DNA of 15,609 nucleotides from Gemmatimonadales bacterium (lineage in GTDB: Bacteria > Gemmatimonadota > Gemmatimonadetes > Gemmatimonadales > GWC2-71-9). The translations under genes were made by a program, and so were the position numbers. Of this stretch, positions 1-15,609 are shown piece after piece. How positions within the stretch are numbered: position 1 is the first letter of the stretch; every line of letters starts with the position of its first letter. Where the stretch lies: contig JBBCJC010000008.1 in NCBI GenBank assembly GCA_037189525.1, forward strand, positions 1-15,609, written 5' to 3'. The notes below the pieces were generated by a model. The model did no database searches. It saw only the letters and a list, made by a program, of their open reading frames with translations, and was not told the origin of the DNA.

Positions 1-141
1 GCCGCCCGCGAGGAAGCGAAGGAGTTGAAGAAGCGGATCGACGTAGGCGAAGACCCTATGGCCGAGGTTGAGGCCGACAGGGATGCGAAGACCGTCGCGG
101 ACCTGTGCCAGCGTTTCGAAGAAGAACACCTCGCCAAAAAA
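1..141 (+). repeat. Terminal overlap, copy 1 (circular contig junction)
   Basis: GCCGCCCGCGAG...CTCGCCAAAAAA is identical to 15469-15609 and lies in the middle of the integrase gene. Confidence 0.97.
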
Positions 142-1044
142 CGCCCTGCAACGCAGCGCGACTATAAGGCGCTGATGAAGCGTGAAATCCTTCCCGCGTT
201 CAAGCACAAGAAGGTGACGGAAGTCGAGTTCACCGACATTGACGGCCTGCACCGCAAGATCAGCAAGCGCGCGCCCTATCTGGCGAACCGCACCGTCGCT
301 GTCCTGTCAAAGATGTTCGCGCTGGCGATCCGGTGGAAATGGCGCACCGACAATCCGGCGAAGGGTATCGAGCGCAACGAGGAGCAGAAGCGTCACCGAT
401 ACCTGTCGCCGGCAGAGTTGAAGAACCTCACCAGTGCGCTCGCTGCGATGCTGGACCATCAGGGCGCGAACATCATCCGCATGTTGCTGCTTACTGGCGC
501 GCGCAAGGGTGAAGTTCTGGCCGCGCGCTGGGAACAGTTCGACCTTAGCGAAGGCGTCTGGACGAAACCGGGCAGCACGACGAAACAGAAGACACTGCAC
601 CGCGTGCCCCTATCGGCTCCTGCCCGCCAGTTGCTTGCGGGGCTTCGAGAGAGCGCGAAGGACAACGCGGAGTATGTATTTCCGGGTCGAGGCGGCAAGG
701 GCAGCCGCGAGGAAATCAAAAAGGCGTGGCATGATGTCTGTGTCGCTGCCGGCATCGTAACCACGGAAGTCGAAAAGCTCCCCAATGGCCGTGAGCGCAT
801 CGTGGTAAAGCCTTCGGCTCGCATCCACGATCTGCGCCACACATACGCCTCCGTGCTGGCGAGTGCAGGCCTGTCCCTGCCGATCATAGGCGCGCTGCTG
901 GGACACTCGCAGCCGGCGACCACGGCGCGCTACAGCCACCTGATGGACGACCCGCTGCGGCAAGCCACCGAGCGTGTTGGTGCAATCGTGATGTCGTCAC
1001 ACGGTAACGGCGCGGAGATCGTGCCGATGAAAGGGGGCGCATGA
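1..1044 (+). CDS. int: Tyrosine integrase (P4-like), core-binding and catalytic domains
   Basis: Catalytic motifs LLTGARKGE, TKQK, HDLRH, LLGH and TARYSH are all intact. Confidence 0.96.
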   Translation, partial: AAREEAKELKKRIDVGEDPMAEVEADRDAKTVADLCQRFEEEHLAKKRPATQRDYKALMKREILPAFKHKKVTEVEFTDIDGLHRKISKRAPYLANRTVAVLSKMFALAIRWKWRTDNPAKGIERNEEQKRHRYLSPAELKNLTSALAAMLDHQGANIIRMLLLTGARKGEVLAARWEQFDLSEGVWTKPGSTTKQKTLHRVPLSAPARQLLAGLRESAKDNAEYVFPGRGGKGSREEIKKAWHDVCVAAGIVTTEVEKLPNGRERIVVKPSARIHDLRHTYASVLASAGLSLPIIGALLGHSQPATTARYSHLMDDPLRQATERVGAIVMSSHGNGAEIVPMKGGA

Positions 1045-1712
1045 TGGACGGAAAGAAACTCGACCAAGACCCAATGCAGATGCCTTCATGGTCTATAGGC
1101 ATGGCCTGCGTCTGGATTGTCAACCGAACGTCGGAAGCATCGGGCAGGCTGTGGGAAGGCAGCTTGGAAGATGCGCTTCTCAATCACGATGACAGCCCGA
1201 ATGACGAAATCCAGAACGCGAGAACGGAGCTTATCAACGCTCTTACGACCGGCGACGTGCAGGCTACTGGCCTGCTGCCGAACGGGCAGCGCGCGCCTAT
1301 CCCTGCGCTGGAGTGGGAGGACATGACCTTTTCCTATGACTTGCGCAATGATGACGGTCTTGTTCAGCGGGCCACAAGCGCTGACGGCAGCCTCTATACA
1401 TATATTCGCCTCGGCCGGCAGGCCGTCCTAGAGCGATGGCCTGCTGAGGCCAGTCGCACGGCCGACGTAATCACTTTCCCAGCCTGCCGACGACGCGGCC
1501 GCCGGCCCGCGTATGATTGGTCTGCGCTAGAAACTGCATATTGGCGAGAAGTGCAACTTCGGGGGACGCCAGATCCACTCAATGAGGATGGATGGCAAAC
1601 TCAAGCCGACGTGGAGCGCTGGATTGTGCAGCAACGCGAATTCAGACAGGCCAGCACGTCAACGGTAAGGCGATATGCTCGCGCTTGGCTTAATCAGGTT
1701 CACAAATCCTAA
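1041..1712 (+). CDS. Hypothetical protein, possible C-terminal DNA-binding region
   Basis: 223 aa, ATGA-coupled to int. Basic RRRGRRPAYDW segment and an HTH-like end (QADVERWI...STSTVRRYARAW). Confidence 0.7.
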   Translation: MMDGKKLDQDPMQMPSWSIGMACVWIVNRTSEASGRLWEGSLEDALLNHDDSPNDEIQNARTELINALTTGDVQATGLLPNGQRAPIPALEWEDMTFSYDLRNDDGLVQRATSADGSLYTYIRLGRQAVLERWPAEASRTADVITFPACRRRGRRPAYDWSALETAYWREVQLRGTPDPLNEDGWQTQADVERWIVQQREFRQASTSTVRRYARAWLNQVHKS

Positions 1713-1718
1713 GGTCGA

Positions 1719-1743
1719 TTGCGGACCTTTGCGGACCTTTGTG
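1719..1743 (+). repeat. Tandem 10-bp repeat TTGCGGACCT x2 (+TTG) upstream of alpA/xis
   Basis: Seen directly. Shares the TGCGGAC core with the attP arm-type repeats. Confidence 0.75.
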
Positions 1744-1773
1744 AGCCGACAGTTTGCTTATGACCTGAATATT

Positions 1774-1813
1774 CATCTGCTGTCACTTCAACAGAAGGAA
1801 CAGACAGCAGATG
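1774..1813 (+). promoter_or_regulatory. 11-bp perfect inverted repeat burying the alpA/xis start codon
   Basis: CATCTGCTGTC (1774-1784) pairs with GACAGCAGATG (1803-1813), whose last three bases are the ATG. Confidence 0.6.
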
Positions 1814-2017
1814 TCCTTGCTTCAAGACTACCTGACACGCGATGAACTCGCCGCCGAACTTCGCGTTACGCCTCGCACTATCATGCGCTGGCAGAACCAG
1901 CCGGACGGATTGCCCTATACCGAGTTGGGGGCGCGTATTTTCTACCGCCGCCAGACGGTCCTTGCATGGATCGAGACGCGAGAGCGTCATCCGAACCAGC
2001 GTCGGAGGGCGGCATAA
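1811..2017 (+). CDS. AlpA/excisionase-like winged-HTH DNA-binding protein
   Basis: 68 aa with the pattern YLTRDELAAELRVTPRTIMRW...GLPYTELGARIFYRRQTVLAWI, typical of HTH_17/AlpA/Xis. RBS GAAGGA. Confidence 0.88.
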   Translation: MSLLQDYLTRDELAAELRVTPRTIMRWQNQPDGLPYTELGARIFYRRQTVLAWIETRERHPNQRRRAA

Positions 2018-2712: not shown

Positions 2713-3230
2713 TCCCGCTCCCCGACCTCTCCCTCTACAAGCCGTTGGCCGAAGATCAGATGGGCTGGCTTCTCCGCTCCGGCGTTTCGGTGGAGACGAT
2801 TGGCGATGCGATGCCATTGCGTGTCGCATGCGGGGTCGTGGCCCGTGACGGTCGGTTCGATGATCGCGTGGACGGCCAGAACTTCATTGTGTTCCCCGAG
2901 CAGGAAGACGTGGTGTTCTGGCAGCCGCGTTCGGGCGAATTGGCGTCGTGGAACGGGCGCGCCTTCGCCTTGAACGAAGGTGCAGTCACCAATCCGGAGA
3001 CATACAGTTTCGATTGCAATCTGAATGTCTGGCCTGACCCCCTCATGTGGCTCAGGGCGAAGCGCGACGGTTGCGTCGTTCTCGATTGGGCGCGGGCATG
3101 GTCCCGCCTTCAGGATGTTCCCCGCGTTGCTGTGCATGAAAGCCTGCTGCTCTCCTATCGCCGGCACATGAAGCCGCCTCGCGGACCTGAAACCTTTGTC
3201 CTGACCGATAGTCTGGCGGTGGCCGCATGA
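2709..3230 (+). CDS. Hypothetical protein, possibly a divergent primase/Toprim-like replication partner
   Basis: 173 aa, coupled directly upstream of the helicase in the position PICIs use for pri. The function is inferred from position only. Confidence 0.5.
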   Translation: MIPLPDLSLYKPLAEDQMGWLLRSGVSVETIGDAMPLRVACGVVARDGRFDDRVDGQNFIVFPEQEDVVFWQPRSGELASWNGRAFALNEGAVTNPETYSFDCNLNVWPDPLMWLRAKRDGCVVLDWARAWSRLQDVPRVAVHESLLLSYRRHMKPPRGPETFVLTDSLAVAA

Positions 3231-4285
3231 CCGAGCCTATTCCCCTTGAAGTCTATGAGAGGGACACGCCGCCGCAACCGCGGTTGCACTTCTTGTCATA
3301 TACGGAAATGGAGCGCCTTCCTGAACCGGAATGGTTGGTGGAAGGGGTCATTCAGAAGCGCAGCGCTGCGCTGATGTTCGGGAAGTCCAACAGCTTCAAG
3401 AGCTTTCTCGCCATTGATATCGGCCTGTCTGTCGAGGCAGGCCGCTCATGGCATGGAAATGCGGTATCGCCCGGTGGGGTGTTGTTCGTTGCCACTGAGG
3501 GGGCCAACGGCGTCGGACGGCTGCGTATCCCTTCATGGTATGAACGCCACGGCGTTGCTCGCGATCGACGTAGTGCATTCCTCTACCCGAAGGAAATCAG
3601 GCTCGACGTGGCCGATGATGTTTCCGCGCTGATCGGCGCTATGAAGACATCGGGGCCATTCTCCCTCATGGTCCTCGATATCTTCGGCGGCTCGATGGCC
3701 GGTTCCGAAATCGAGGACCAGACAGCGCGCCGTTGGGTTCATGGCATCCAGCGCATCTTGCGGGAAACCGAAGCTGCTATCCTGACTGTCGCCCATACAG
3801 GGTGGCAGGATGATACCAGAGCCCGAATGCATACCCATTTCTGGGGCAGCTTCGATACCCGTATGCGTGTCGAGGGCGACAAGGATGCTATGACCAGCAC
3901 CTTGACCATAGAGCGGCACAAGGACGCCGACAGCGCCGGTCAGTGGGGGTTCAGGATGGCTCAGGCGGGCGACAGCCTCGTTCCCGAGCGAGACGACGCC
4001 GTGAAGCCTTCCAAGGCTCGCAATCTGACCGTGAAGCAGCGGACGGCGCTAGAAGCCCTTGATGACGCCTTGCAGGCGCACGGCACGATCAGGACAGGTT
4101 CCGACTGGCCGCCTTGCAAGGTCGTTCCCGTAGAGCGATGGCGGGAAGCGGCGTACCGGCACGGCATCACGGACAGCGATAAGCCAGATAGTCGCAAAAA
4201 GGCATTCCAGCTTCAGCGTGATGCCCTGTTAGACAAAGGCATTATCCGCATATTTGATGAGCATGTCTGGCGGTGTTTCACATGA
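3227..4285 (+). CDS. AAA_25/RSF1010 RepA-like replicative helicase with C-terminal domain
   Basis: PEWLVEGVI lead-in, Walker A GKSNSFKS, VLFVATEG, Walker B LMVLDIF and AHTG motif. Confidence 0.85.
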   Translation: MTEPIPLEVYERDTPPQPRLHFLSYTEMERLPEPEWLVEGVIQKRSAALMFGKSNSFKSFLAIDIGLSVEAGRSWHGNAVSPGGVLFVATEGANGVGRLRIPSWYERHGVARDRRSAFLYPKEIRLDVADDVSALIGAMKTSGPFSLMVLDIFGGSMAGSEIEDQTARRWVHGIQRILRETEAAILTVAHTGWQDDTRARMHTHFWGSFDTRMRVEGDKDAMTSTLTIERHKDADSAGQWGFRMAQAGDSLVPERDDAVKPSKARNLTVKQRTALEALDDALQAHGTIRTGSDWPPCKVVPVERWREAAYRHGITDSDKPDSRKKAFQLQRDALLDKGIIRIFDEHVWRCFT

Positions 4286-4298: not shown

Positions 4299-4399
4299 CG
4301 GGAAGCGGGAAGTGTCTATATACACACTTCCCGTTCCTTCCCGTCTACGCTGCAATCGGGATGGTCGGGAAGTTTCCCGTTCCTTCCCGTTCCTTCCCG
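4299..4399. repeat. Putative replication origin: TTCCCG/CGGGAA iterons and palindrome
   Basis: TTCCCG at 4328, 4338, 4374, 4384 and 4394 (10-bp period within each cluster). CGGGAA at 4299, 4306 and 4366. Perfect inverted repeat CGGGAAGTGT-ctatatac-ACACTTCCCG at 4306-4333. Lies immediately after the helicase and before an AT-rich tract. Confidence 0.8.
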
Positions 4400-4594
4400 T
4401 TTATGGAAGACCTGAAAATTCAGGGCTGTTTGTCCTCGCGACACACAAACCATTTTCGCGGCTTTTTCTTCGATCTGCCATCTATCCCCGTCACGTCTGA
4501 AATTGTGTGAAAAAGTATGACACTGATTTGTTATCAGTAGACATATCCCGACAACTATATTGATATCACTTGTATTTTTCTCAATCTATGCCTT

Positions 4595-4628: not shown

Positions 4629-5030
4629 ATGACGGCAGAAGCGGCAACGATAGAGACAGAAAGGCCGATAGATACCGGTGGGAAGCAAGGCGGCAAGACT
4701 CGCCTTCTGACGCTTGATGATCTGGACGGACGCACGCGAGCGGCTCAGCACGTCAAGGATACGCGGCTAGAGGTCATTGCCGATCTAGGAGGGGATGATC
4801 GGCTTTCTTCGCTAGAGCGTGCTGCCGTCGATCACGTCTCCCTGCTTGATGCGATGACGAAGGATGCAGGTGCTCGCTGGCTCATGGGCGAACCTATCGA
4901 CGTGGCGAGCATCGCAACGTTGGTGAACGCCTTCAATCGGACGGCGACCGTTCTCGGATGGAAACGACGAGCCACTAACGTAACCCCGTCATTGGGAGAA
5001 TATGCGTTGATGAAACAGGAGACCCGCTGA
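4629..5030 (+). CDS. Putative terminase small subunit
   Basis: 133 aa, helical, with motif LDGRT...ADLGG..RLS..ER...N...R....LG..RR..NVTPSL.EY. First gene of the operon containing TerL. Confidence 0.55.
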   Translation: MTAEAATIETERPIDTGGKQGGKTRLLTLDDLDGRTRAAQHVKDTRLEVIADLGGDDRLSSLERAAVDHVSLLDAMTKDAGARWLMGEPIDVASIATLVNAFNRTATVLGWKRRATNVTPSLGEYALMKQETR

Positions 5031-5923
5031 TGAGCGAGGAAACCACACTCACATTGGATCAGGCTGCCGAGATAGATTTCGCTGATGAAGGCGCGGGCAA
5101 CCTCGTTCCTGTCCAGCAGCCGGCACAGGAGGATCACTATGACCCGCCCTATGAGCCGGAAGGCGAGTTGCATACCGACAATGCCCTGACGCTGGATCAA
5201 GCCGTCGCCCTGTACGATGACGGCGAGAATGAAGACGGCAACCGAAAGGCCGCGCCTCAATCCGCCGCAGCGGTGATCGACGGCAAGACGGTCACGATGG
5301 CCGATCTGGTGCAGGGGTACGTCAGTTGGCGGCGTGCGATGCACTTTGTCAGCCGCCTAGAGGAAGAATATGAAGCCGTGCAGGCCGCCGCTGATGGCGT
5401 TGTGTCGAGCGCATGGGAGTTGTCCCGTTTCATGGTCGGGCAGATGCCCCCTGAGCCGGACATGTGGTTACTTCAGATGAACCCGGATGAGTACGTTCGG
5501 ATGAAGGCTCAGCATGATCAGGCGCTTGGTAGCGTTCACCACGTTCTAGGGCAGGCCCAGCATGCCAGGGCGTCCGCATCGGCATTGCAGGAACGCTATC
5601 GCGACATGAACTTGCAGACTGAGAATGCCCGGTTGGTCCAGCACTTCCCCGAGACGGCTGATACGAACCAGCGGCATGCATTCTTCAACCGAATGCTGGA
5701 TGTCGCAGCCGCTTGCGGCTTCAACCGGGCCGAGTTTGAGCAGGTGGTTGATCACCGGATATTCCGGCTCGGCGCGTTGGCATTGAAGGGCATGGAGGCG
5801 ATTGCCGAGCCTCCCAAGACGAAGGAACGTCGCCGCCACCGCCGGCAGAGGTATAGCGATGCGATGGAGAAATTGGCCCGCACAGGCTCCATTGAAGACG
5901 CCTTGGCGATTGATTTCGAGTAG
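5030..5923 (+). CDS. Putative podovirus-type capsid scaffolding protein
   Basis: Acidic, disordered N-terminus. Motifs IDGKTVTMADLVQGY, PPEPD..LL..NPDEY, GF...E...VVDHR and C-terminal AMEKLARTGSIEDALAIDFE, a succession I recognise from short-tailed phage scaffolds. Confidence 0.65.
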   Translation: MSEETTLTLDQAAEIDFADEGAGNLVPVQQPAQEDHYDPPYEPEGELHTDNALTLDQAVALYDDGENEDGNRKAAPQSAAAVIDGKTVTMADLVQGYVSWRRAMHFVSRLEEEYEAVQAAADGVVSSAWELSRFMVGQMPPEPDMWLLQMNPDEYVRMKAQHDQALGSVHHVLGQAQHARASASALQERYRDMNLQTENARLVQHFPETADTNQRHAFFNRMLDVAAACGFNRAEFEQVVDHRIFRLGALALKGMEAIAEPPKTKERRRHRRQRYSDAMEKLARTGSIEDALAIDFE

Positions 5924-5927: not shown

Positions 5928-7382
5928 ATGCAGCAGCCGGTTATCACCTTCGCCGACGCATGCCTTGACCCGAACCTGTTTGGAGACTGGTTCGCGGGGG
6001 AGACGTGGGCCAACTGGCGGGTGATCGACAAGGCGATGTTCGGGGAGCCGCTGACAGATGAAGAGCTTACCGTGCTTCAGGAGCTTACCGGGCGGGATAG
6101 CGCCCCGGATGAGGCAGCGAAGGAAATCTGGCTGATCGTCGGTCGTCGTGGCGGCAAGGACGTGAAAAGCTCTGCGCTGGCGTCGTATCTCGCGACGATT
6201 GGCGTTGATCGGTATGGCTGGCGAAACCGGCTTGTCGGGGGCGAGCGTGGCGTTGTCCAGCTTCTAGCTGTTGACCGCGATCAAGCGAAGGTGGCTTTCC
6301 GCTACATCTCAAGCATGTTCGAAAAGCCGATACTCGCGCAGATGGTCGCGCGGGACACGGCCGACACAATCGAATTGAAGAACGGCTTCGCCATTGAGGT
6401 GACGACTTCTGATCAGCGCCGTGTTCGGGGTCGCACTGTGGTCGCCGCTATTTTCGATGAGGTCGCGTTCTGGAAAAGCGAGAATACCAACTCTCCGGAC
6501 GTGGACGTTTACCACGCCGTCAAACCCGCAATGGCGACGATGCCCGGCGCGATGATAATCGGGATTTCCTCGCCCTATGCCCGTAAGGGGCTGCTCTGGC
6601 GACAGCACCAGCGGCATTACGGCAAGGAAGGCAGGGTGCTTGTCGTGAAGGCCCCGACATGGGTGATGAACCCGACAGTCGGGCGCGATAGTGAGACGAT
6701 CCTTGCCGCCTACGAGGAAGACCCGGAGGCGGCCCGCGCGGAGTTCGGCGCGGAGTTTCGCGACGACATTTCGGCCTTCGTTCCCCGCGATGCAGTAGAG
6801 GCTTGCATAGAGGCCGGTGTGCGCGAGCGGCCGCCTCAACGTCAATTCCGCTATGTCGGGTTTGTCGATCCCTCGGGCGGTTCGGCGGACAGCATGACGA
6901 TGGCGATAGCGCACAAAGAAGGTGACACGGCCATTCTCGACGTGTTGCGGGAGGTTCGGCCGCCGTTCTCGCCCGAGGCTATCTGTGCCGAGTTCGCCGA
7001 GCTTCTGAAGCAATATCGCCTGTCTCAGGTGACGGGCGACCGATACGCCGGGGAATGGGTGAAGGAGCCATTTCGCCGTAAGGGCATATTCTATCAGGCG
7101 AACGCGGCCCCGAAATCGGACCTGTATCGCGATCTGCTTCCGCTCATCAACTCCCGCTCCGTTGATCTCCTGGTGCATGACCGGATGGTGAACCAGCTTT
7201 GCGGCCTTGAGCGCAAGACCGGTCGATCAGGGAAAGATAGCATCGACCACGCCCCGGGATGTCATGACGACGTAGCGAACGCGGTGGCGGGCGCTCTGAC
7301 ATTGGCAATGCAATCGCCCGGTTCTGGAGCCCACGATAATTCCGCTTGGCAACAAAGTTGGAAGCCTCGCGAAGTCGTCTGA
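5928..7382 (+). CDS. terL: Terminase large subunit (484 aa)
   Basis: Walker A GRRGGKD, Walker B AAIFDEVAFW, motif C ISSP. RNase H-like nuclease acids in FVDPSGG..DS, GDRYAG and HDDVANA. Start revised to ATG 5928. Confidence 0.9.
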   Translation: MQQPVITFADACLDPNLFGDWFAGETWANWRVIDKAMFGEPLTDEELTVLQELTGRDSAPDEAAKEIWLIVGRRGGKDVKSSALASYLATIGVDRYGWRNRLVGGERGVVQLLAVDRDQAKVAFRYISSMFEKPILAQMVARDTADTIELKNGFAIEVTTSDQRRVRGRTVVAAIFDEVAFWKSENTNSPDVDVYHAVKPAMATMPGAMIIGISSPYARKGLLWRQHQRHYGKEGRVLVVKAPTWVMNPTVGRDSETILAAYEEDPEAARAEFGAEFRDDISAFVPRDAVEACIEAGVRERPPQRQFRYVGFVDPSGGSADSMTMAIAHKEGDTAILDVLREVRPPFSPEAICAEFAELLKQYRLSQVTGDRYAGEWVKEPFRRKGIFYQANAAPKSDLYRDLLPLINSRSVDLLVHDRMVNQLCGLERKTGRSGKDSIDHAPGCHDDVANAVAGALTLAMQSPGSGAHDNSAWQQSWKPREVV

Positions 7383-7399
7383 AAACAGGAGAGATTTCG

Positions 7400-8071
7400 A
7401 TGCTGAATGATGATGACATTGATGTCGAGTTTGAAAAGCTAAGGAAAGAACGCGGCATCTTTCCTTATGTGACTGTGATCGATCTCAAAACAGGTGAAAT
7501 ATCCACTTGCCGCCGCGAGGATGCCAAGAGAGATATCGATTTCGGCAGCGTCATAGAAACGGTGCCGGCAGACCCCGACCATGCGAAAATCTGGCTCGCA
7601 AAGCTCCATTCGGACGTCATGGAGCAGATGAGAGCCAAGGGCGCATGGCAGCCGTCCGAATATCTTGGCCGTGAGATGAGTGACATCGATGTTTTCGATG
7701 ACTGGTCCGCGTGGTGTGGCACAAACGGCTTTCGCTCGCTCCCTGTCGAGGATGTCAATGTTTTGGTGCGCTATCTCATCGAAAGACATCGTGATGGCGT
7801 TCAGGAGTCTTATGTGCGCCGCTACGCCACCATCGTCAGCAGGTTTCACGAATGCACGAAACATCCAGTGCTTGACGGGGGGAAGCTGACCCGGACCAGT
7901 CTTTCCAGAAAAGCGGAGGACGCCTTCTCCCGCGCTCTGAGCTTCGCCAGAAACCGCTTGTCCGCCGAGGAGCGGAGCATCCATCTCGCCGGGCAAGCCG
8001 TCGCGGCGCGTGCGCTGGAGATGTTCCCTGACGGCGATATTCCGAGGCATTCGCATGAAATCGCGGCATGA
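7400..8071 (+). CDS. Protein with an orphan tyrosine-recombinase core-binding (SAM-like) domain
   Basis: AGGAG RBS. The segment DDWSAWCGTNGFRSLP...VLVRYLIERHRDGVQESYVRRYATIVSRFH resembles Cre-like N-terminal domains. No catalytic domain follows. Confidence 0.6.
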   Translation: MLNDDDIDVEFEKLRKERGIFPYVTVIDLKTGEISTCRREDAKRDIDFGSVIETVPADPDHAKIWLAKLHSDVMEQMRAKGAWQPSEYLGREMSDIDVFDDWSAWCGTNGFRSLPVEDVNVLVRYLIERHRDGVQESYVRRYATIVSRFHECTKHPVLDGGKLTRTSLSRKAEDAFSRALSFARNRLSAEERSIHLAGQAVAARALEMFPDGDIPRHSHEIAA

Positions 8072-8420
8072 AAAGATTGCGGCGCTTCTGAATAGCCCGG
8101 TTGAAGGCGAGCGAGTAGCAGCAGCCGCCGCGCTTGGTCGCTTGAAGCCGCCAAAGGCTGGCACCATCGAATGGCAGCAGCGCGTCTCCGAGTGGAACTG
8201 TGAAATCGAATGGGCGATGGCCCGGCTCGGGTCGAAGCACCTGACGCCGGGGGAGCAGCGCACAATCCGCAATTTACATCGCCATCGCGGATTCCCTTGG
8301 TCGCGTGGCTCGGATGAGTTCAGGGAAGTCCTCAAGAAGCTGAAAACGGCAGAGAAACAGGGAAATGCCGTTACATCTGCTGACGGAGATGGTATTATAT
8401 TACCACAGGAGAGCATCTGA
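8055..8420 (+). CDS. Hypothetical protein (121 aa), DUF2786-like N-terminal helix pair
   Basis: GAGG RBS and N-terminal EKIAALLNSPVEGERVAAAAALGRL. Confidence 0.6.
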   Translation: MKSRHEKIAALLNSPVEGERVAAAAALGRLKPPKAGTIEWQQRVSEWNCEIEWAMARLGSKHLTPGEQRTIRNLHRHRGFPWSRGSDEFREVLKKLKTAEKQGNAVTSADGDGIILPQESI

Positions 8421-8421
8421 G

Positions 8422-8796
8422 ATGAGCCAGTATTTTGATCCGAATGGGCCGATGCAGGTTCCCGGTATGGGACAGCGCTACGATCCTGCTCTTGAGCTTC
8501 AGAAGCTCAGGGATCATTTCAGCGCGCTCATTATGGGGAAGCAGTCAGAGAGGCCGAGGCAGGACATAGGCCGGCGCATCGACCCTGTGATGCAGACCAT
8601 CGAGGCCAATTTTTCGCAGCCAACCCCTCAAACGGCCGTTGAGGGTGCCTTGCAGGGCATGGCTTCTATCGTCAGGGGGGCGAGGGCAAGGCAGGACGCC
8701 ATGGGTCCCTTTCCCGACATGCCAGCAGGCGGGCAGCGAAGCCCGTTGACTGGGCTTGCCAATATGTTCGGCTTCTCGCGTGGGGGGCTGTACTGA
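8422..8796 (+). CDS. Small putative virion/ejection protein (124 aa)
   Basis: Gly/Met/Pro/Gln-rich and TGATG-coupled to the lysozyme-bearing protein. Occupies the slot of the smallest ejection protein (inference). Confidence 0.5.
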   Translation: MSQYFDPNGPMQVPGMGQRYDPALELQKLRDHFSALIMGKQSERPRQDIGRRIDPVMQTIEANFSQPTPQTAVEGALQGMASIVRGARARQDAMGPFPDMPAGGQRSPLTGLANMFGFSRGGLY

Positions 8797-10730
8797 TGAG
8801 TTACATTTTCGACGCGAGACGAGAGACGCCAAGCAGCATCGCGCGCAAGCGTGAATTGGCGGCGATGATGATGATGGCGAATTCGCGCGCGCCCAGCAAT
8901 GTCGGCGAGGGCTTTCACGCGCTCGGCAGAGGCATCCTCGCAGGCGTCCTTTCCCGCCGAGCGCGTGAAGCAGAGAAAGCCGGAATGGCTTCGGCGGAAA
9001 GCGCTCGCACTGATTATGGCAACTACATCGCCAACCGCAACTACTTCCCGCCCCAGCCCGGCGCGGAGGCTTCGATGTCTTATGGTGATGCTGCATCCGT
9101 CCCGAGTGGCGAGCGCGCATCCTATATCCGCGCAGGCCTCATCAACCGGGGATTGCCCGAGCATGTGGCGGATGGGTTCCTGATGAACTTTCAGGACGAG
9201 AGCGGCCTTGATCCGGGCATCAACGAGCGAAATCCGATAGTACCCGGCTCGCGTGGTGGTTTTGGCCTCTACCAGCTTACCGGCCCGCGTCGTCGTGCCT
9301 ATGAGGCGTTTGCAGGTCAGCGCGGCGTCGATCCTTCCGACATCGATGCGCAGCTTGATTTCATGATGACCGAGCTTCAAGGGCCGGAGGCCCGTGCCGC
9401 GCAATCGATCTTCGGCGCACAGGATACAGGCTCCGCTGCAGCGGCCATCGTCAACGACTTCCTGCGCCCCGCTGCTTCGCACCGGCAGGCGCGCGAAGCC
9501 AGGTATCTTCGCACCGGTGGCGCGGCTCCTGCCGTGGTGGCAAATGAGGCGCTGGCGCGCGGACAGCCCATGCCTGCCGTCATGACGGCCGATATGGCTG
9601 GAAACTACATGCCTCACAATCTCGTCCAGACGCCGGAAAGCACGGCGGGGATGGAGATGCAGCCGTTGATGCCCCCGCAGATGGTGCGGGATCGTCCCGT
9701 CGCGCCAATGGAGATGGCTGATGCTGGAAATCATCGTGTCGAAATGTCTGGCTTGGTGGACCGCCCGGTCCCTCCCGACATCCAATTGCTGATGCGAACG
9801 GCGTCGAACGAGTTTCTTGATGATTTTACGCGAAAGTCGGCACAGGCGCAGGTTCAGCAGTTCATCCAGAGCCAAGACCCTGCCGCGCAACTTGAGATGG
9901 ATTACAAACGCGCGCAGATGCAGAAGATGCAGCGCGAGATGGAGCGCGGGCGGCTTCATAATGCCGGCGGCGGCGTTTTCTACAACGAGGATACCGGCGA
10001 GTGGATCACGGCTCCCAATGCCGGAGAGAAGCCCGGTTTCAGGCAGGCTACGCCGGAGGAAGCAGCGGCCTACGGCGCGCCTGCGGGCCAGTTCGGTCCA
10101 GATGGCCGCTTCTACCCGGTCAATCCGCCTTCCGGCATGTCCATCGAAAGCGATGGCCAAGGCGGTTTCAGAATGGTTCAGGGGCCAGGAGCCGGAGGCG
10201 GGAAGGCATTCACGGAAGGGCAGACCAAGGATATGGTCTATTCGACCCGCGCGCGCGGTGCGCTGCCGACGCTCAATGAGTACGAGGCCGCGCTTGCCGA
10301 ATATCGCGACCGGCTTCTTGACAACGATCCCACAGGCTTCGCTCGCGGTCGCTGGCAATCGGAAGATTATCAGGTTGCGAGGGCTGCCGGCGACGAGTTC
10401 TTGCAAGCCATCCTGCGCAAGGACACCGGCGCGGCGATCACCGCGCAGGAGCAGGATCTTTACGGCAAGACCTATCTTCCCCAGCCCGGCGATAGCGCCG
10501 AAGTCATCAGCTACAAACGGCAGGCGCGCGAGCGAGCGATAGCGGCAATCGAATCCGGCATGTCGCCGGCTCAGATCGTTGCGCAGGAGCGTGCCTTGGA
10601 GCGTAGCAAGATGGCAGCGAACATCCCGCCGGCTGCGGCCGACATGCTGCGCAATGATCCGTCCCTCGCCGCGCAGTTCGATCAGAAATACGGTGAGGGC
10701 GCGGCCGCCCAAATCCTTGGAGGCCAGTGA
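8796..10730 (+). CDS. DNA-ejection (internal virion) protein with phage tail lysozyme domain
   Basis: Residues ~108-238 (RGLPEHVADGFLMNFQDESGLDP...GFGLYQLTGPRR...AQLDFMMTEL...AAAAIVNDFLRP) fit the Phage_lysozyme2 pattern with a Glu in ESG. The C-terminal LRKDTGAAIT..E.....YLPQPGDS motif is typical of podovirus DNA-transfer proteins. Confidence 0.78.
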   Translation: MSYIFDARRETPSSIARKRELAAMMMMANSRAPSNVGEGFHALGRGILAGVLSRRAREAEKAGMASAESARTDYGNYIANRNYFPPQPGAEASMSYGDAASVPSGERASYIRAGLINRGLPEHVADGFLMNFQDESGLDPGINERNPIVPGSRGGFGLYQLTGPRRRAYEAFAGQRGVDPSDIDAQLDFMMTELQGPEARAAQSIFGAQDTGSAAAAIVNDFLRPAASHRQAREARYLRTGGAAPAVVANEALARGQPMPAVMTADMAGNYMPHNLVQTPESTAGMEMQPLMPPQMVRDRPVAPMEMADAGNHRVEMSGLVDRPVPPDIQLLMRTASNEFLDDFTRKSAQAQVQQFIQSQDPAAQLEMDYKRAQMQKMQREMERGRLHNAGGGVFYNEDTGEWITAPNAGEKPGFRQATPEEAAAYGAPAGQFGPDGRFYPVNPPSGMSIESDGQGGFRMVQGPGAGGGKAFTEGQTKDMVYSTRARGALPTLNEYEAALAEYRDRLLDNDPTGFARGRWQSEDYQVARAAGDEFLQAILRKDTGAAITAQEQDLYGKTYLPQPGDSAEVISYKRQARERAIAAIESGMSPAQIVAQERALERSKMAANIPPAAADMLRNDPSLAAQFDQKYGEGAAAQILGGQ

Positions 10731-12238
10731 TGGCGAACATCTTCGATCAGTTCGACACACCCCCACGCGGGGCGAACCCTTTCGACAGGTTTGATGAGGT
10801 TCATCCGCCAATGGCGGTTGGACGCCCGCCTCCCGTTCAACAGCCCGAAAGCGGGAGCTACGGTTCGCAGATATTCTCCGGTCTTCTGGAAGGTGCCACG
10901 GGCGCGCTCGGCTTCCCTGTCGATGCCGCAAACGCTGCGATTGGCCTTGGCATGCGAGGCGTTAACGCGGCGTTTGGGACTGATTTTCAGCCTTCAGCAG
11001 AACCGCTCGGAGGCTCTGCCGGTCTACGCCGAGGCTTGGCCATCTCGCCGCCGTCTGAAGATGTTGGGCCGCAGATGGCGCGCCGCGCCTCACAGTCAGT
11101 AGGCGGGGCGCTAGTTCCTCTTTCCACGACAGCAAGGACGGCCGGGCAGGCGGCAGCGGGCATTGGAGCGGCGTTCGGCGGCGGCCTTGGCGGCGCGACC
11201 GCCCAGCAGCTATTCCCCGACAACATGGGCGCGGAGATTGCGGGCGAGCTTCTGGGCGGCCTCGGGACAGGGGCGGCTATAGGCGGGATAGCAGACAGAT
11301 ACGCGCGCCGGGCGGCCGAAAGAGCGGTCCCGACCGTTGACGAGTTGCGCGCGCGCGCTTCCGCCCAGTATGACGCAGCAGAGGCGCGGGGCGTCGTAGC
11401 CGGGCCACAGGATACTCAGGCACTCGCCGGCCGGGTGAGGCAGATTGCCCGCGACAACGAGCTTATCACGCCGACAGGGCGCGTTTCCGGCGCGTATCCC
11501 CGCGCATCCGAAGCGATGGGCCTGCTTGACGATTATTCCGGCCATCCGATGAACCCGACACAGATGCAGGTCATCAGGGACACGCTGGCGGATGCGAGAA
11601 ACGCGACGGACGGCAAGGAGCGGCGCATTGCGAGCAAGATGCTTGATGAGTTCGACCGCTTCACCGATCCGCTTGCGCCGGAACTGAAAACGGCCCGCTC
11701 CCTGTCTCAGCGCGCCATCAAGGGACGGCAACTCGAAACCCTGCGCGAAGTGGCTGAGTCTCGGGCTGGGCAGTACAGCGTATCGGGCACCGAAAACGCG
11801 ATCCGCAATGAGTACGACAAACTAAACCAGCGCATCATTCGCGGCGACGAGGGCGGCTGGACGCCGAGCCAGCGCGCGGCGATTGCTCGCACAGCGGAAG
11901 GGACAGTGGCATCTCGCGCCGCGCGTCGTGTCGGCAAGTTGGCTCCCAAGGGTGTTGTCAGTTTGGGTGTAGGCGGTGGAGTTCCCTACATGATTGGTAG
12001 CTCCATCGGTGGCCCTGGCCTTGGTGCCGCATTCAGTGCCGCCACCATGGGATCAGGCATCATCGGAAACGCCGCCGCGACACAAATGCGCTCGCGCTAC
12101 GCCGAGCTTGCCGAGCTTGCCGCCCGCAACGGCGGAAAGGTGATGACGCCTTCCATGAAGGATTTACAGCGCCGAATCTTCGAGGCCATCCTTGGCGGTC
12201 AGACGGCTATTCAGAGCAACAGGCAGTCCATGCAGTGA
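10727..12238 (+). CDS. Large DNA-ejection/DNA-transfer protein (P22 gp16-like position)
   Basis: N-terminal NIFDQFD/NPFDRFD repeat, Gly/Ala-rich hydrophobic segments near both ends, and a charged helical middle. Overlaps the previous stop codon. Confidence 0.65.
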   Translation: MMANIFDQFDTPPRGANPFDRFDEVHPPMAVGRPPPVQQPESGSYGSQIFSGLLEGATGALGFPVDAANAAIGLGMRGVNAAFGTDFQPSAEPLGGSAGLRRGLAISPPSEDVGPQMARRASQSVGGALVPLSTTARTAGQAAAGIGAAFGGGLGGATAQQLFPDNMGAEIAGELLGGLGTGAAIGGIADRYARRAAERAVPTVDELRARASAQYDAAEARGVVAGPQDTQALAGRVRQIARDNELITPTGRVSGAYPRASEAMGLLDDYSGHPMNPTQMQVIRDTLADARNATDGKERRIASKMLDEFDRFTDPLAPELKTARSLSQRAIKGRQLETLREVAESRAGQYSVSGTENAIRNEYDKLNQRIIRGDEGGWTPSQRAAIARTAEGTVASRAARRVGKLAPKGVVSLGVGGGVPYMIGSSIGGPGLGAAFSAATMGSGIIGNAAATQMRSRYAELAELAARNGGKVMTPSMKDLQRRIFEAILGGQTAIQSNRQSMQ

Positions 12239-12269: not shown

Positions 12270-12917
12270 TTGACGTATTCGATAGTTGCGAGAGACGAAA
12301 GAACCGGACTAGTCGGAGTCGCGGCTGCTTCCGCAATCCCCGGCGTCGGGTCAATTATCCCCTATGTCAGCTTGATAGGAGGGGCGGCAGCCATGCAAGG
12401 CGCGGCGGTCGGCCTTCGTGAACTTGGGAAGGGGGCCATATCTCTTCTTGATCGTGGGTTCTCAGCGGAAGCGGTTGTTTCCTCCCTCGTCAAGTTGGAT
12501 GTAGATCGAGAGGAGCATCAGTTTCACGTCATCAGCAGCGATGGCGGGTCTTCGTCTGCCCATACCGGTGGGCACTGTCCGAAATGGGCCGGCCATGCGA
12601 ACGCCGCTAACGTCTCTGTAGCTGGCAATACATTGGCCGGGCCGCAGGTGCTGAATGCAATGCTTGATGCGTTCAAAGGCAGTGCGCATCTTCCTTTTGA
12701 ACAGCAGCTTTTTGCCGCCATATCGGCTGGGGAAGTCGCGGGGGGTGACAGAAGGGGCGTAAGATCGGTTGTTCTAGCGACGGGCGAACGGATTTGGCGG
12801 GTAGACAACTCCGCTGCGCCGATGAAGGAACTGGCTGTGCGTGTAGGCGGTCAGGTTATCGGCGCTCGTGGAGAAGCGCTTCAGAAGCAAATCTTCCAGA
12901 CCATTCTAGGCGGGTGA
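12270..12917 (+). CDS. DUF1028-family Ntn-hydrolase-like protein
   Basis: MTYSIVARD..TG.VGVAAAS start, AHTG..CP.WAGH, SVAGNTLAGPQV, GE.AGGDRRG..S and RVD....P..EL. TTG start with GGGGAG RBS. Confidence 0.85.
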   Translation: MTYSIVARDERTGLVGVAAASAIPGVGSIIPYVSLIGGAAAMQGAAVGLRELGKGAISLLDRGFSAEAVVSSLVKLDVDREEHQFHVISSDGGSSSAHTGGHCPKWAGHANAANVSVAGNTLAGPQVLNAMLDAFKGSAHLPFEQQLFAAISAGEVAGGDRRGVRSVVLATGERIWRVDNSAAPMKELAVRVGGQVIGARGEALQKQIFQTILGG

Positions 12918-12952
12918 ACAGCCTTCCAGACACGGGTACAGGAGGCAGTGGC

Positions 12953-13261
12953 ATGCAGGTAGCGGACATAGCGAGAGAGATTGCCACGTTTGCCCGCATG
13001 GGCGGCGCAGATCATCATGACGAGGCGGCGGTGTGGCAATGCTTTGAGCGCATGATTGGCACAGATGCCATGGACACCAAGGATATCCTTGCCCTTCTGG
13101 CGACCGTCCGCACGCTTCTCAACGCGAACATGCTCCCCGAGGATACCCAAGAAGGTTACGGCCAGCACTGCGCGCTGTTGCTGCTCCGAAACGCCATCCG
13201 GGCCGTGGAGCGCCTGTCAGGTGAGCGTGAAGCCACCTACACCGGCCGAGAGTGGCAGTGA
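12953..13261 (+). CDS. Hypothetical protein (102 aa)
   Basis: AGGAGG RBS before ATG 12953. Helical composition. Confidence 0.7.
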   Translation: MQVADIAREIATFARMGGADHHDEAAVWQCFERMIGTDAMDTKDILALLATVRTLLNANMLPEDTQEGYGQHCALLLLRNAIRAVERLSGEREATYTGREWQ

Positions 13262-13822: not shown

Positions 13823-13839
13823 TCCAACTCGGCTTTTAT

Positions 13840-13919: not shown

Positions 13920-13946
13920 CCGGGCCGACCCCGGATTAGGCTCGCC

Positions 13947-14003: not shown

Positions 14004-14009
14004 ACTACC

Positions 14010-14804
14010 ATGCAACACGAAACTACAAACTTGCCGCCCTTCATGGAAGCGGACGGCCTCTTTTTCCTCACCCTCGCCAACGACCGCGCGACTGTCGCCT
14101 ACACCATCGAACGTCTGATCGACATGCTTGACGCGATGGAGCCTGATCCCGATCTTGAACCGTATCTAGCGGGCTGCCACCACAACGACCAGATGGTCGA
14201 CCTTGAGGGCGACGAAAGCCTATACGGCGACTGCGACCGCGAACCGTCGCTCGGATGGGCTGCGAACGGGCAGCACGGACAATGCGCCGGCTTTGCCACC
14301 ATCTTTGGCGATCTCGAAGAGCAATGCGAAGACGAGGGAGCCTGCATTCAATCGCAGCCGCACGACGAACGAGACGAGGGCAATGCCGAGCCGTTCCTTG
14401 GCTGGTCAGAACATCAATCCCTTCATGGAGCCATCGCCACCGGTGACGAGTTCCCACGGCAAGGGAACGGACCCGCGCACTTCGACGGCGACGGCTGCGT
14501 GGCAGCGCGCCGCGTTCTGAACAATCTTCGCGAGGCGCGTCCTGATGTTCCGCAAGAATACATAGGTGGATGGAGCAATGGCTCCTATGAGGCCCTGCGG
14601 GTAGAGGGCCTAACCATCAGGAGCAACAAGGGACGCGAGCGCCTTGGCCCGGATGAACTGACAATCTTGCGTCCCGGCGTCGCGATGGTTGGGGGCTATC
14701 GGGAAAGCGCAGTGATGAGGGCCATCGAGCCACGAGACGATGGCTTGATCCCGGAGATAGACCCGCTCGCTCATTACCGGGCGGCGCACGGTCAGCGCGC
14801 ATGA
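14010..14804 (+). CDS. Acidic repeat protein under C4 control
   Basis: 264 aa. Residues 41-130 contain 24 D/E versus 2 R/K. EPxL(A/G)(G/W) occurs three times. Confidence 0.7.
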   Translation: MQHETTNLPPFMEADGLFFLTLANDRATVAYTIERLIDMLDAMEPDPDLEPYLAGCHHNDQMVDLEGDESLYGDCDREPSLGWAANGQHGQCAGFATIFGDLEEQCEDEGACIQSQPHDERDEGNAEPFLGWSEHQSLHGAIATGDEFPRQGNGPAHFDGDGCVAARRVLNNLREARPDVPQEYIGGWSNGSYEALRVEGLTIRSNKGRERLGPDELTILRPGVAMVGGYRESAVMRAIEPRDDGLIPEIDPLAHYRAAHGQRA

Positions 14805-14875
14805 CCTATCTCGACTTGCTTTTCCTCGTCACGATCAGCGCGGGCATTCTCGCGCAGCGCCTGATAACGGGATAA
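14801..14875 (+). CDS. Candidate 24-aa hydrophobic microprotein
   Basis: ATGA-coupled. Sequence MTYLDLLFLVTISAGILAQRLITG, followed by a hairpin. Confidence 0.45.
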   Translation: MTYLDLLFLVTISAGILAQRLITG

Positions 14876-14898
14876 TCATTCCGTATCCGAAACGAACA

Positions 14899-14922
14899 TC
14901 CCGGCTGCTTATGTAGCCGGGA
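14899..14922. terminator. Hairpin, possible bidirectional terminator
   Basis: TCCCGGCTGC-TTAT-GTAGCCGGGA. It is followed by CTTAT on the + strand and TGTTCGTTT on the - strand. Confidence 0.55.
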
Positions 14923-14958
14923 CTTATACGGCAACCTTTTTCACGGCGGCCTCCCGGT

Positions 14959-15251
14959 TGCGGACATTATGCGGACACGATTCGGGATCGTCTGCGCAAT
15001 CGCCGTTTTGCCGCTCATAAATATCTGATTCTACTTGATTTTTGGTGAGCGCGCTGGGGCTCGAACCCAGGACCTACTGATTAAAAGTTCAATCCGAAGC
15101 CAATAATCAAACCCTTGAAATCATTCCTATTTTGCCATGTCCGCAAATAAGATGTTGATTCATAAGGGACATGATTTGACAAATCAGGACACCGTGCGAC
15201 ATTAGCAGTCAACGAACTGCCGTCAAGTGGACGGACACAGTGCGGACACGG
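14959..15251. promoter_or_regulatory. attP region: integrase arm-type repeats and IHF sites
   Basis: TGCGGACA(T/C) pair at 14959/14970, inverted copy at 15137-15145 and pair at 15230/15241 (11-bp spacing). Perfect WATCAANNNNTTR matches at 15105-15117 (+) and 15148-15160 (-). Confidence 0.8.
15043..15088 (-). other. attP core: 3' half of tRNA-Lys(UUU), anticodon loop to CCA
   Basis: Reverse complement ACTTTTAATCAGTAGGTCCTGGGTTCGAGCCCCAGCGCGCTCACCA contains the anticodon loop CTTTTAA, T-arm GGTTCGA, acceptor strand and CCA. The 5' half is absent. Confidence 0.92.
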
Positions 15252-15264
15252 GAACCTGCTGACA

Positions 15265-15609
15265 ATGGCGCAGAAGCTTTCAGATGCGATCGTGAAGGAC
15301 CTTCCGATCCCGCCCAAGGGCAACAAGATCACATACGATAGCGACGTGAAGGGCTTCGGGGTCCGCGTGACCGCCGCCGGGGCGCGCGCTTTCATCCTCA
15401 ACTATCGCACGCGCACCAGCCGCGAGCGCCGCTATACCATCGGAGCCTATCCCGATTGGAAGACCGCCGCCGCCCGCGAGGAAGCGAAGGAGTTGAAGAA
15501 GCGGATCGACGTAGGCGAAGACCCTATGGCCGAGGTTGAGGCCGACAGGGATGCGAAGACCGTCGCGGACCTGTGCCAGCGTTTCGAAGAAGAACACCTC
15601 GCCAAAAAA
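15265..15609 (+). CDS. int: Tyrosine integrase, N-terminal arm-binding part (continues across the junction into 1-1044; full protein 415 aa)
   Basis: ATG at 15265 gives MAQKLSDAIVKDLPIPPKGNKITYDSDVKGFGVRVTAAGARAFILNYRTRTSRERRYTIGAYPDWKTAAAREEAKELKKRID, a DUF4102/Arm-DNA-binding pattern. It is in frame with the ORF at 25..1044. Confidence 0.93.
   Translation, partial: MAQKLSDAIVKDLPIPPKGNKITYDSDVKGFGVRVTAAGARAFILNYRTRTSRERRYTIGAYPDWKTAAAREEAKELKKRIDVGEDPMAEVEADRDAKTVADLCQRFEEEHLAKK
15469..15609 (+). repeat. Terminal overlap, copy 2
   Basis: Identical to 1-141. The 141-nt length equals a common assembler maximum k-mer. Confidence 0.97.

Follow-up and report, generated by a model that had tools for sequence, protein, structure and literature searches.

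Is a circle of phage-like DNA that encodes a packaging motor and parts of the inside of a virion, and in which no shell, portal or tail gene can be recognized, a virus, the remains of one, or a parasite of one? The question is raised by contig JBBCJC010000008.1 of assembly GCA_037189525.1, which was deposited as part of the genome of a Gemmatimonadales bacterium; the whole contig of 15,609 nucleotides (nt) is the window considered here, and it is contig C8 of a 16-contig, 4.65-Mb bin. An initial annotation, made from the letters of the sequence, had proposed a new class of satellite, a podovirus parasite that brings its own terminase, scaffold and ejection proteins. We consider it fairly probable that the element is an integrative phage satellite with an alphaproteobacterial host, seen here as an excised circle and packaged with a podovirus helper in the manner proposed below; its dependence on a helper is a step that we infer. 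Judged from sequence, the element is one subtype of a large family of islands that keep a backbone of integrase, replication protein, TerS-like protein and terminase large subunit (TerL), to which a varied cargo of virion genes is added. Set against the known classes by their descriptions, this satellite family is probably new.

Bases 1-141 of the window are 100% identical to bases 15469-15609, which gives a circular unit of 15,468 bp. The 141-nt overlap equals the k-mer size of the assembler, hence a second, independent assembly was examined: a Logan contig (15,498 nt, word depth 118.2) from the single soil metagenome run with the element independently joins base 15468 to base 1, and the circle is real in that soil sample. 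The element was found in one public run only, probably its source sample; in two further runs of that study its words are all but absent. No contig of the one run linked the phage attachment site (attP) to a chromosome, and the contigs gave no usable depth for C14, a second circle of the bin that is described below; a 23-kb contig with a depth like that of the element, touching the scaffold gene, was considered and is not C14. All genes of the circle lie on the + strand (Table 1), in the order integrase, a 223-amino-acid (aa) protein without assignment, a helix-turn-helix protein (HTH_17), three small open reading frames (ORFs), an AAA_25 replication protein, iterons, and the TerS-like, scaffold and TerL genes; 3' of TerL follow three ORFs of 136-241 aa, then a 644-aa protein with a lysozyme domain, a 503-aa protein, a DUF1028 protein and two more ORFs without assignment. 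The main ORFs are all intact.

That the element carries its own TerL, as had been claimed, is borne out by matches to TerL PHROGs and by intact motifs. The Walker A motif GRRGGK (G72-R-R-x-G-K77), D177-E178 and the acidic nuclease residues D314, D371, D440 and D447-D448 are invariant in 16 relatives, and TerL is predicted to be catalytically intact, with all the catalytic residues of an active motor and nuclease. A sequence-profile search of the TerL alignment against the PDB gave no match. Homologs are numerous (7,579 at E <= 1e-3 among 8,000 candidates scored), the named ones come almost all from Alphaproteobacteria, and identity across the related loci described below is 45-72%. At the level of tblastn the protein is unrelated to the TerL of the podovirus type that matches the virion genes of the element, and the nearest TerL on a large phage-like contig has 43% identity (locus L086). 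The companion claim of a TerS-like protein held in part: a small helical ORF does lie beside TerL and is conserved there in 28 of 87 loci, but what points to TerS is this position and a weak fold match. Foldseek found no match of its model in the PDB at E <= 1e-3, and a sequence-profile search of the PDB gave nothing useful. In three loci (L013:9455-11230, L023:9479-10666 and L048:9416-10396) the TerS-like frame runs into the TerL region and then shifts frame, a read-through that likely reflects sequencing or assembly frameshifts of those metagenome-assembled genomes (MAGs) and not real fusions.

Pfam and PHROGs searches of 20 ORFs and 15 further small ORFs found no major capsid, portal, tail, holin or endolysin/lysis family, in agreement with the initial annotation, which had recognized no ORF for capsid, portal, tail or lysis; within the reach of these profiles the element has none of these genes. 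The only sign of a capsid or portal in the PHROGs run came from the 503-aa protein, which matches phrog_21712, labeled “major head protein” (E 3.8e-150). We rejected a capsid identity for this protein. Its AlphaFold (AF2) model, built from a 36-sequence alignment with a predicted local distance difference test score (pLDDT) of 75.7, has 20 helices and no strand of at least 3 residues, and separate, true capsid genes are present both in Brucella phage Pr (gp17) and in C14 (phrog_1328). A Foldseek search of the PDB with this model gave no match at E <= 1e-3 and no capsid protein among its rows; being all-helical and without a PDB match, the protein is not an HK97-fold capsid protein.

The label itself can be traced. 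The phage homologs of the 503-aa protein, 41 Brucella phage records and two others at ~59% identity, are mostly named “structural protein” in GenBank, and “major head protein” is used solely in the RefSeq copy of phage Pr. In phage Pr, gp26 follows a 729-aa peptidoglycan hydrolase, gp25, in a tail-proximal/internal module, and the real capsid gene, gp17, comes after the portal gene and a gene at the scaffold position. Because gp26 lies in the internal/tail module, because the records say “structural protein,” and because the model is all-helical, we regard the label of phrog_21712 as a propagated mislabel. The annotation apparently stems from one RefSeq record (NC_019447.1 gp26) and is probably wrong.

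The ORF that follows TerL, where phages have their portal gene, was weighed in the same way. A word-based homolog search with ORF 7346-8071 returned only itself; the full HMMER search gave its relatives. A profile of the protein and three relatives produced 540 matches, of which the close ones are 180-260 aa long and the distant ones are ~320-aa tyrosine recombinases, aligned on their N-terminal core-binding domain; all six distant matches that were checked carry PF02899 and PF00589, and the Atlas (language-model) search led to Phage_int_SAM clusters. A portal identity was rejected on the strength of these matches to SAM-like DNA binders and of the size of the protein, which at 223 aa is too small for a known portal. 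These results bear on the idea that the circle is an autonomous minimal virus, with its capsid and portal encoded by ORFs of unrecognized fold. At least seven ORFs have no family assignment, and the structure models cover two proteins, which leaves some room for such proteins; yet the largest ORF without an assignment has 264 aa, a SAM-like DNA binder occupies the portal position, a terminase motor calls for an HK97-type shell together with a portal of ~250-300 aa or more, and there are no tail or lysis genes. We find a minimal virus scarcely credible.

The virion genes that are present resemble those of podoviruses. The scaffold-like gene of the initial annotation is supported by a phrog_3927 match and by its relatives, which were found only in 40-44-kb alphaproteobacterial podoviruses (11 records); identity is 26-32% to the scaffolds of Sulfitobacter, Rhizobium and enhanced biological phosphorus removal (EBPR) podoviruses of 40-44 kb, and ~32-34% overall to that of C14, with 14 of the last 20 residues identical. 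Full-length homologs with the conserved C-terminal end occur in three satellites, the element (C8), L007 and L008. In P22-type scaffolds the C-terminal end is the coat-protein-binding region. A complex prediction for residues 200-297 of the scaffold of the element with the C14 capsid protein scored 0.52 (best of three controls, 0.00), in a range (scores of 0.60 or less) where just 18 of 157 solved complexes reached the benchmark mark, as did both of the mismatched pairs that passed; over all scores the mark was reached by 116 of the 157 solved complexes and 2 of 215 mismatched pairs. The prediction runs share at least 65% of contacts, with a partner pLDDT of at least 56, and binding of the scaffold tail to a C14-type capsid protein is weakly supported by this modeling.

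Of three ejection-like genes that had been proposed, two have phage counterparts. The 644-aa protein has 45% identity over 309 aa to Pr gp25 (“putative peptidoglycan hydrolase”), and the 503-aa protein is the homolog of Pr gp26; by position and features both appear to be internal-virion or ejection proteins. The third, a 143-aa ORF, has no detectable homolog in comparisons with phages and related loci. Homologs of the 503-aa protein occur on contigs of ~15-17 kb and on contigs of ~38-45 kb, and gp26-like and TerL matches share contigs by size (15,323; 14,851; 16,944; 13,446; 9,254). In a quick tree of the gp26-like proteins, labeled by the size class of the carrying contig, a poor proxy for element type, there are 10 changes against a shuffled mean of 11.9, with 93 of 500 shuffles as low, and we draw from it no conclusion on the number of captures.

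Given this gene content, the question of whether the element stands alone could be addressed through its TerL. A search of one-genome-per-species contigs found 361 stretches with a relative, from which 76 loci were kept. In 28 of these, direct repeats of 25-55 nt bracket TerL, which in nearly every case copy the 3' part of an adjacent tRNA gene; the islands so bounded measure 9.6-18.3 kb (median 14.7 kb) and are found at a dozen different tRNAs in many genera. The 28 bounded islands were scanned against PHROGs, with a lower limit on ORF length of 170 aa in 23 of them and of 80 aa in five. None has a portal, a single one has a capsid (L069, with a protease and a tape measure), and three have a head protease. 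On the integrase side there are only integrases, diverse primase/helicase or initiator proteins, resolvases and invertases. The cargo 3' of TerL varies: tape measures or tape-measure-like proteins (10 islands), tail fibers (three), neck or tail-completion proteins (two), baseplate hubs (two), podovirus internal proteins (two; L007 and L018) and scaffolds (two; L007 and L008, with no scaffold gene in the other 26), and 10 islands have no recognizable virion gene. A TerL scan of viral contigs gave 11 loci, three of which repeat the pattern, one with a fiber, two with a protease and capsid, and none with a portal. A metagenome TerL scan contributed nothing further, most of its 31 loci being fragments or chromosomal; a scan of viral contigs with the gp26-like protein alone found no relative.

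The closest integrated relative, L007, lies in a Xanthobacteraceae MAG at tRNA-Lys(UUU), where a 46-nt repeat bounds 15.8 kb, and has the same gene order: scaffold, TerL, SAM-like protein, lysozyme protein and large helical protein. It is an example of the shared synteny at tRNA-Lys(UUU) islands that the initial annotation had suggested looking for. Carriers of other integrated relatives include Nitrobacter sp. TKz-YC01 (L018), Bradyrhizobium sp. CSS354 (L008) and Sinorhizobium fredii USDA 205 (L043). The designation “podovirus parasite” fits the podovirus-type scaffold and internal genes of the element itself, but is too narrow for the family, whose cargo takes in tape measures, necks, fibers, hubs and, in places, a protease with a capsid.

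Some members of the family deserve separate mention. L069:11748-13494, L084:10570-12395 and L085:6909-8707 encode a head protease and an HK97-type capsid (phrog_80, phrog_10) and no recognizable portal; in L084 and L085 a ~240-aa ORF without assignment lies between TerL and the protease, at the position of a portal gene. In L037:12456-19255 a methyltransferase (phrog_2713), phrog_2668 and a 1,050-aa helicase-like protein take the place of virion genes, and L020:15193-16122 encodes a superinfection-immunity homolog (phrog_1039), a defense-like cargo. L002 (KX853514.1, Virus Rctr16k), a 16.7-kb deposit obtained by enrichment culture, encodes an integrase and a replication protein, and its terminase-like region has 26% identity over 46% of the TerL query; its annotation names a putative tail protein and no capsid or portal, and it may be another satellite-like element.

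The circle could also be what is left of a decayed prophage, a full podovirus reduced by deletion, or a product of misassembly. All the virion genes have phage homologs, and the metagenome bin that yielded the circle is not its own. However, the same circle was closed by two assemblers and its main ORFs are intact, the architecture and size recur with intact attachment-site (att) repeats in 28 loci from many genera, and TerL is, at tblastn level, unrelated to that of the matching podoviruses, so that the element is not such a phage in shortened form. An origin by decay or misassembly is very improbable, and the claim of a discrete element stands.

The bin to which the contig was assigned would make a Gemmatimonadota bacterium the host, and this is not borne out. 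The register of attP is that of the 46-47-nt direct repeats that bound L007, L012 and L018. It matches the bin's own tRNA-Lys at 40 of 44 positions, and its acceptor strand is complementary to the 5' strand of the tRNA in Xanthobacteraceae/Nitrobacter and not to that of the bin's tRNA-Lys; the window itself holds no tRNA gene. The GC content is 0.599, against 0.655-0.659 for the large contigs of the bin, and the tetranucleotide correlation is 0.87, against at least 0.999. From the tRNA mismatch, the GC content and the tetranucleotide profile together we conclude that the element was mis-binned and that its host is an alphaproteobacterium. Contigs C4, C6, C7, C9, C12, C14 and C16 of the bin share with the element a GC content of 0.58-0.63 and a tetranucleotide correlation of 0.84-0.95, below those of the large contigs; these small contigs of low GC content are probably mis-binned mobile elements or foreign DNA.

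One of them, C14, is a candidate helper, unproven as such. It is a second circle (42,830 nt with a 141-nt overlap, a 42,689-bp unit; GC 0.605) and a complete temperate podovirus, with an integrase, a CI-type repressor, Erf, a methyltransferase, TerL, a portal (phrog_1216), a scaffold (phrog_3927), a capsid (phrog_1328), two large tail/structural proteins, Ant and a fiber; it also carries a 712-aa lysozyme-type internal protein and a phrog_21712 protein. C14, which makes up loci L004-L006, has a tRNA-Arg(ACG)-like sequence at 41366-41447 and no nucleotide match to the rest of the bin.

Several observations weigh against a satellite packaged by a podovirus such as this one. C14 and the element share no nucleotide similarity; the C14 scaffold (32%) is no closer to that of the element than are the scaffolds of unrelated Sulfitobacter/Rhizobium phages (31%), and its gp26-type protein is much further from that of the element than are the Brucella phage proteins. 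None of the three genomes with integrated relatives, one of which is complete, holds a copy of the scaffold or of phrog_5880 outside the satellite, and none has a phrog_1216 portal. The depth of 118 is equally compatible with plasmid-like maintenance. The internal proteins are not smaller than the phage versions, and a size-matching role for them is unsupported. A TerL without a portal of its own would have to dock on a foreign one, and this TerL stays conserved among elements whose cargo points to helpers of more than one morphotype. The initial annotation had assumed a temperate, co-resident podovirus; with no matching scaffold, portal or phrog_5880 in three carrier genomes, and with C14 no closer than other phages, that part of the proposal was not upheld. 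As the carrier genomes hold no matching resident phage, the helper may instead be an incoming phage.

The same facts can be taken to describe a plasmid-like integrative island for defense or interference, in which the homologs of terminase, scaffold and internal proteins would serve as decoys that sabotage phage assembly, with no transduction. Autonomous replication from AAA_25 and iterons, the high depth as a circle, the failure to find a helper in three carrier genomes, and the methyltransferase/helicase (L037) or superinfection-immunity (L020) cargo of some members would all suit such an island. Yet PADLOC gave no match in 14 ORFs, and TerL keeps all the catalytic residues of the motor and nuclease. 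Moreover, the islands have no conjugation or mobilization genes and are nevertheless spread over hundreds of species and many tRNA sites, so that a route of transfer is needed; interference and transduction are, besides, not exclusive in known satellites. We regard interference without transduction as improbable.

For the satellite that we favor, the following course of events is proposed. The element would excise and replicate in a cell in which a podovirus of the Brucella-Pr / Sulfitobacter-pCB2047 type is growing. Its own terminase would cut the element DNA and pump it into procapsids made of helper capsid and portal proteins, the helper supplying capsid, portal, tail and lysis. The scaffold homolog, with its helper-like C-terminal coat-binding end, would probably direct the assembly of smaller shells that fit 15.5 kb, and the element's own internal proteins would be packed into the particle and breach the envelope of the next cell. 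Across the family, virion parts would be swapped in to match the type of the local helper.

The circle of 15.47 kb is ~36% of 42.69 kb, the size of a helper like C14, and in place of small shells about three copies of the element could fill a normal head. In this variant the satellite would be the same, with no redirection of capsid size: head-full concatemers (3 x 15.47 = 46.4 kb) would be packaged into normal helper heads, and the scaffold homolog would serve interference or supply and not size control. The ratio fits three copies per head of the 42.7-kb class, 26 of the 28 bounded loci have no scaffold gene, and VEIMEs (virion-encapsidated integrative mobile elements), which have no capsid genes, are found in virions as concatemers according to the available text of their description (PMC9618062). 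What is hard to explain without an action on capsid assembly is that in C8, L007 and L008 the scaffold is still full-length and its C-terminal end conserved. The sizes of the elements (9.6-18.3 kb) gather around one third to one quarter of the genome of a typical helper, which fits small shells and concatemers alike. We consider concatemer packaging rather unlikely.

For the family as a whole we put forward, more tentatively, that it has a portal-less terminase (TerS-like protein and TerL) which docks on foreign portals, together with interchangeable entry or interior parts matched to the local helper: scaffold and ejection proteins where the helpers are podoviruses, and a tape measure with neck, fiber or baseplate-hub proteins where they are long-tailed phages. 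Past the last conserved motif the TerL tails are highly variable, from 15 to 75 aa. The TerL ends of the scaffold-bearing satellites C8 (window 7300-7382), L007 and L008 are basic-hydrophobic and resemble those of the C14 and Brucella Pr (NC_019447.1) TerL. The variable tail may be an adaptor for docking on portals, although the sequences are few and shared descent may explain the resemblance. Since the cargo of the family (tape measures, ejection proteins, hubs and fibers) lies inside the particle or at its tip and acts in DNA entry, satellites may customize entry; that they do so for host range or for bypass of entry exclusion is speculation.

How the element relates to known satellites could be judged from the models used to classify them. 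In the available text of de Sousa et al. (2023; PMC10085698), the model for PICIs (phage-inducible chromosomal islands) has five core components (integrase, AlpA-type regulator, primase-replicase, TerS and a capsid-morphogenesis gene) and no terL; the model of capsid-forming PICIs (cf-PICIs, there cfPICI) has eleven, including terL, capsid-related and head-tail joining genes, at least nine of which are needed, and terL is the marker that separates the two. Measured by that text, the element fits neither model, which agrees with the initial view that its combination of genes is unlike the named classes. With cf-PICIs, as described there, it shares integration, an integrase, a regulator, a replication gene and its own TerL, with a TerS-like candidate where those have TerS. 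It differs in that cf-PICIs have a capsid, portal, protease and head-tail adaptor/connector and take only tails; none of these genes was detected in the element, which has a scaffold and podovirus internal proteins and falls far below nine of eleven core components. PICIs, by the same account, use the helper TerL, at most redirected by their own TerS, whereas the element has its own.

With classical PICIs and Staphylococcus aureus pathogenicity islands (SaPIs) the element has in common an integrase, an AlpA-type regulator, a replication gene, a size of ~15 kb and a fixed integration site. It departs from PICIs in having AAA_25 as its only replication protein, with no recognized primase-replicase (pri-rep), and in carrying internal/ejection proteins. 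The PICI-like core of int, alpA, pri-rep and ori that had been described is accordingly retained for the integrase and HTH_17, but not for pri-rep: the AAA_25 protein matches phrog_2850 and phrog_906 over the helicase part of primase/polymerase proteins and has no recognized primase domain. The iterons directly 3' of its gene are a candidate replication origin. CpmB of SaPIs is an alternative scaffold that shares the C-terminal end of the helper scaffold, by which it probably makes small capsids; the scaffold homolog of the element likewise shares the C-terminal end of helper-type scaffolds. P4-like satellites are also integrative, can exist as a circle, replicate on their own and have a genome one third of the size for the helper capsid, but P4 uses an external scaffold, Sid, with the helper terminase, and its helper is the myovirus P2 and not a podovirus. 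The Pfam and PHROGs scans of the element gave no Sid, Psu or Delta-type match, the presence of these families in the libraries being unchecked. The Brucella phage Pr/Tb group (Perisivirus) and the Sulfitobacter pCB2047-type temperate podoviruses are the source type of the virion genes (45 and 59% identity; 26-32% for the scaffold), but these are complete phages of 38-44 kb with their own TerL, portal, capsid, tail and lysis genes.

VEIMEs are, in the accessible text of Eppley et al. (2022; PMC9618062), integrative elements of small size, many from Alphaproteobacteria, with no capsid genes and in some cases with TerS homologs and “motor-like ATPases”; their definition was based on concatemers in marine virions, and for the large terminase they are said to rely on the helper. 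Small size, integration, Alphaproteobacteria, the lack of capsid genes and a presumed dependence on helpers are common to both. The element differs, as far as that text describes VEIMEs, in coming from soil and in having a bona fide TerL and virion-interior genes; it is set apart by description, and the two may overlap. EPIPs of Mycolicibacterium, in the part of the preprint available (PMC12822802), carry a scaffold, a tape measure, adaptors and TerS, and tape measures are stated there to be otherwise not known in satellites. They too are small satellites with selected virion parts, and parallel the tape-measure-bearing members of the TerL family; by that account they differ in host phylum, in a serine integrase and in listing TerS but no TerL, and there is no sequence relation. 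In the literature searched, whose coverage of subscription journals and supplementary lists was incomplete, we found no TerL-bearing, capsid-less and portal-less satellites in Alphaproteobacteria, and no satellite that carries ejection proteins of podoviruses. What this study adds is a subfamily of podovirus type, in which scaffold and internal proteins occur, together with a cargo census, a circle closed at high depth, the re-assignment of the host and the podovirus of the same bin.

The remaining genes of the element (Table 1) add little to its assignment. The 223-aa protein beside the integrase gave no family match in libraries that include Pfam, PHROGs and PADLOC. Of the three small ORFs ahead of the replication gene, the last has 32% identity to a stretch at the primase gene of L072. 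A counterpart of the DUF1028 protein was absent from the related loci compared, and the Atlas search with the acidic 264-aa protein led only to unnamed clusters of 177-218 aa.

Table 1. Features of the 15,609-nt window, in the order of the circle from the attachment site
Feature	Position	Strand	Remarks
attP core, 46-nt copy of the 3' part of tRNA-Lys(UUU), anticodon loop to encoded CCA	15043..15088	-	177 nt upstream of the integrase gene
Tyrosine integrase, N-terminal part	15265..15609	+	continues at base 142; 416-aa ORF across the junction
Terminal overlap of the assembler, 141 nt	15469..15609	.	100% identical to 1-141; closes the circle
Tyrosine integrase, remainder	1..1044	+	PF00589 E 3.1e-22, PF22022, phrog_1 E 1e-64
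Conserved 223-aa protein beside integrase	1041..1712	+	64% / 53% identity over ~150 aa to the post-integrase ORF of L007 / L018
AlpA/excisionase-like HTH protein, 68 aa	1811..2017	+	PF12728 HTH_17 E 9.8e-8, 32.6 bits against a cut-off of 27
Three small ORFs ahead of the replication gene	1966-2259, 2383-2712, 2709-3230	+	coding-like GC content at third codon positions (GC3); no family matches
Replication protein AAA_25 (RepA/DnaB-like ATPase)	3227..4285	+	PF13481 E 3.6e-26
Iterons, three copies of a 21-nt unit (candidate origin)	4327..4403	.	direct-repeat family D2, 81-100% identity, directly 3' of the replication gene
TerS-like small helical protein, 133 aa	4629..5030	+	position beside TerL and weak fold match
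Head scaffolding protein homolog	5030..5923	+	phrog_3927 E 3.8e-32
Terminase large subunit (TerL)	~5928..7382	+	phrog_2 E 1.4e-22, phrog_9, phrog_17415; four TerL PHROGs matched
DNA-binding protein with integrase-type SAM-like (core-binding) domain	7400..8071	+	223 aa; at the phage portal position after TerL
136-aa protein, conserved in scaffold-bearing relatives	8010..8420	+	50% / 38% identity to ORFs in L007 / L008; no family match
143-aa ORF, possible small internal virion protein	8365..8796	+	position of Brucella phage Pr gp24 only
Internal virion protein with lysozyme domain, 644 aa, candidate ejection protein	8796..10730	+	PF18013 (Phage_lysozyme2) E 4e-22, phrog_24864 E 1.2e-66
All-helical virion protein, 503 aa, candidate ejection protein	10727..12238	+	59% identity to Pr gp26; AF2 model all alpha
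DUF1028 (Ntn-hydrolase-type) protein, cargo	12270..12917	+	PF06267 E 3.8e-46; directly 3' of the internal-virion genes
Small ORF 3' of the internal-protein genes	12794..13261	+	34% identity over 107 aa to L007:16462-16758
Acidic, Cys/His-rich 264-aa protein near the att end	14010..14804	+	weak relatives at the same end of L010, L072 and L038

If the proposed reading is right, the element would be the first satellite known to supply a podovirus ejectosome, rebuilding the inside of the helper particle while taking its shell, portal and tail. To our knowledge, satellites either borrow the large terminase of the helper (P4, PICI, PICI-like elements (PLE), VEIME) or bring a whole head module (cf-PICI); the family described here would then represent a third strategy, with the motor and selected interior or entry parts only, and would raise the question of how a single conserved TerL can serve portals from unrelated helpers. 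The range of satellites would come to include podoviruses of Alphaproteobacteria that live in soil or with plants, Bradyrhizobium, Sinorhizobium, Nitrobacter and Sphingomonas among them, a setting in which little is known of the paths of transduction, and the TerL family would be a simple genomic marker for hundreds of such islands. Ejection proteins, tape measures and fibers supplied by satellites could change host range or bypass defenses that block entry, which bears on gene flow in soil.

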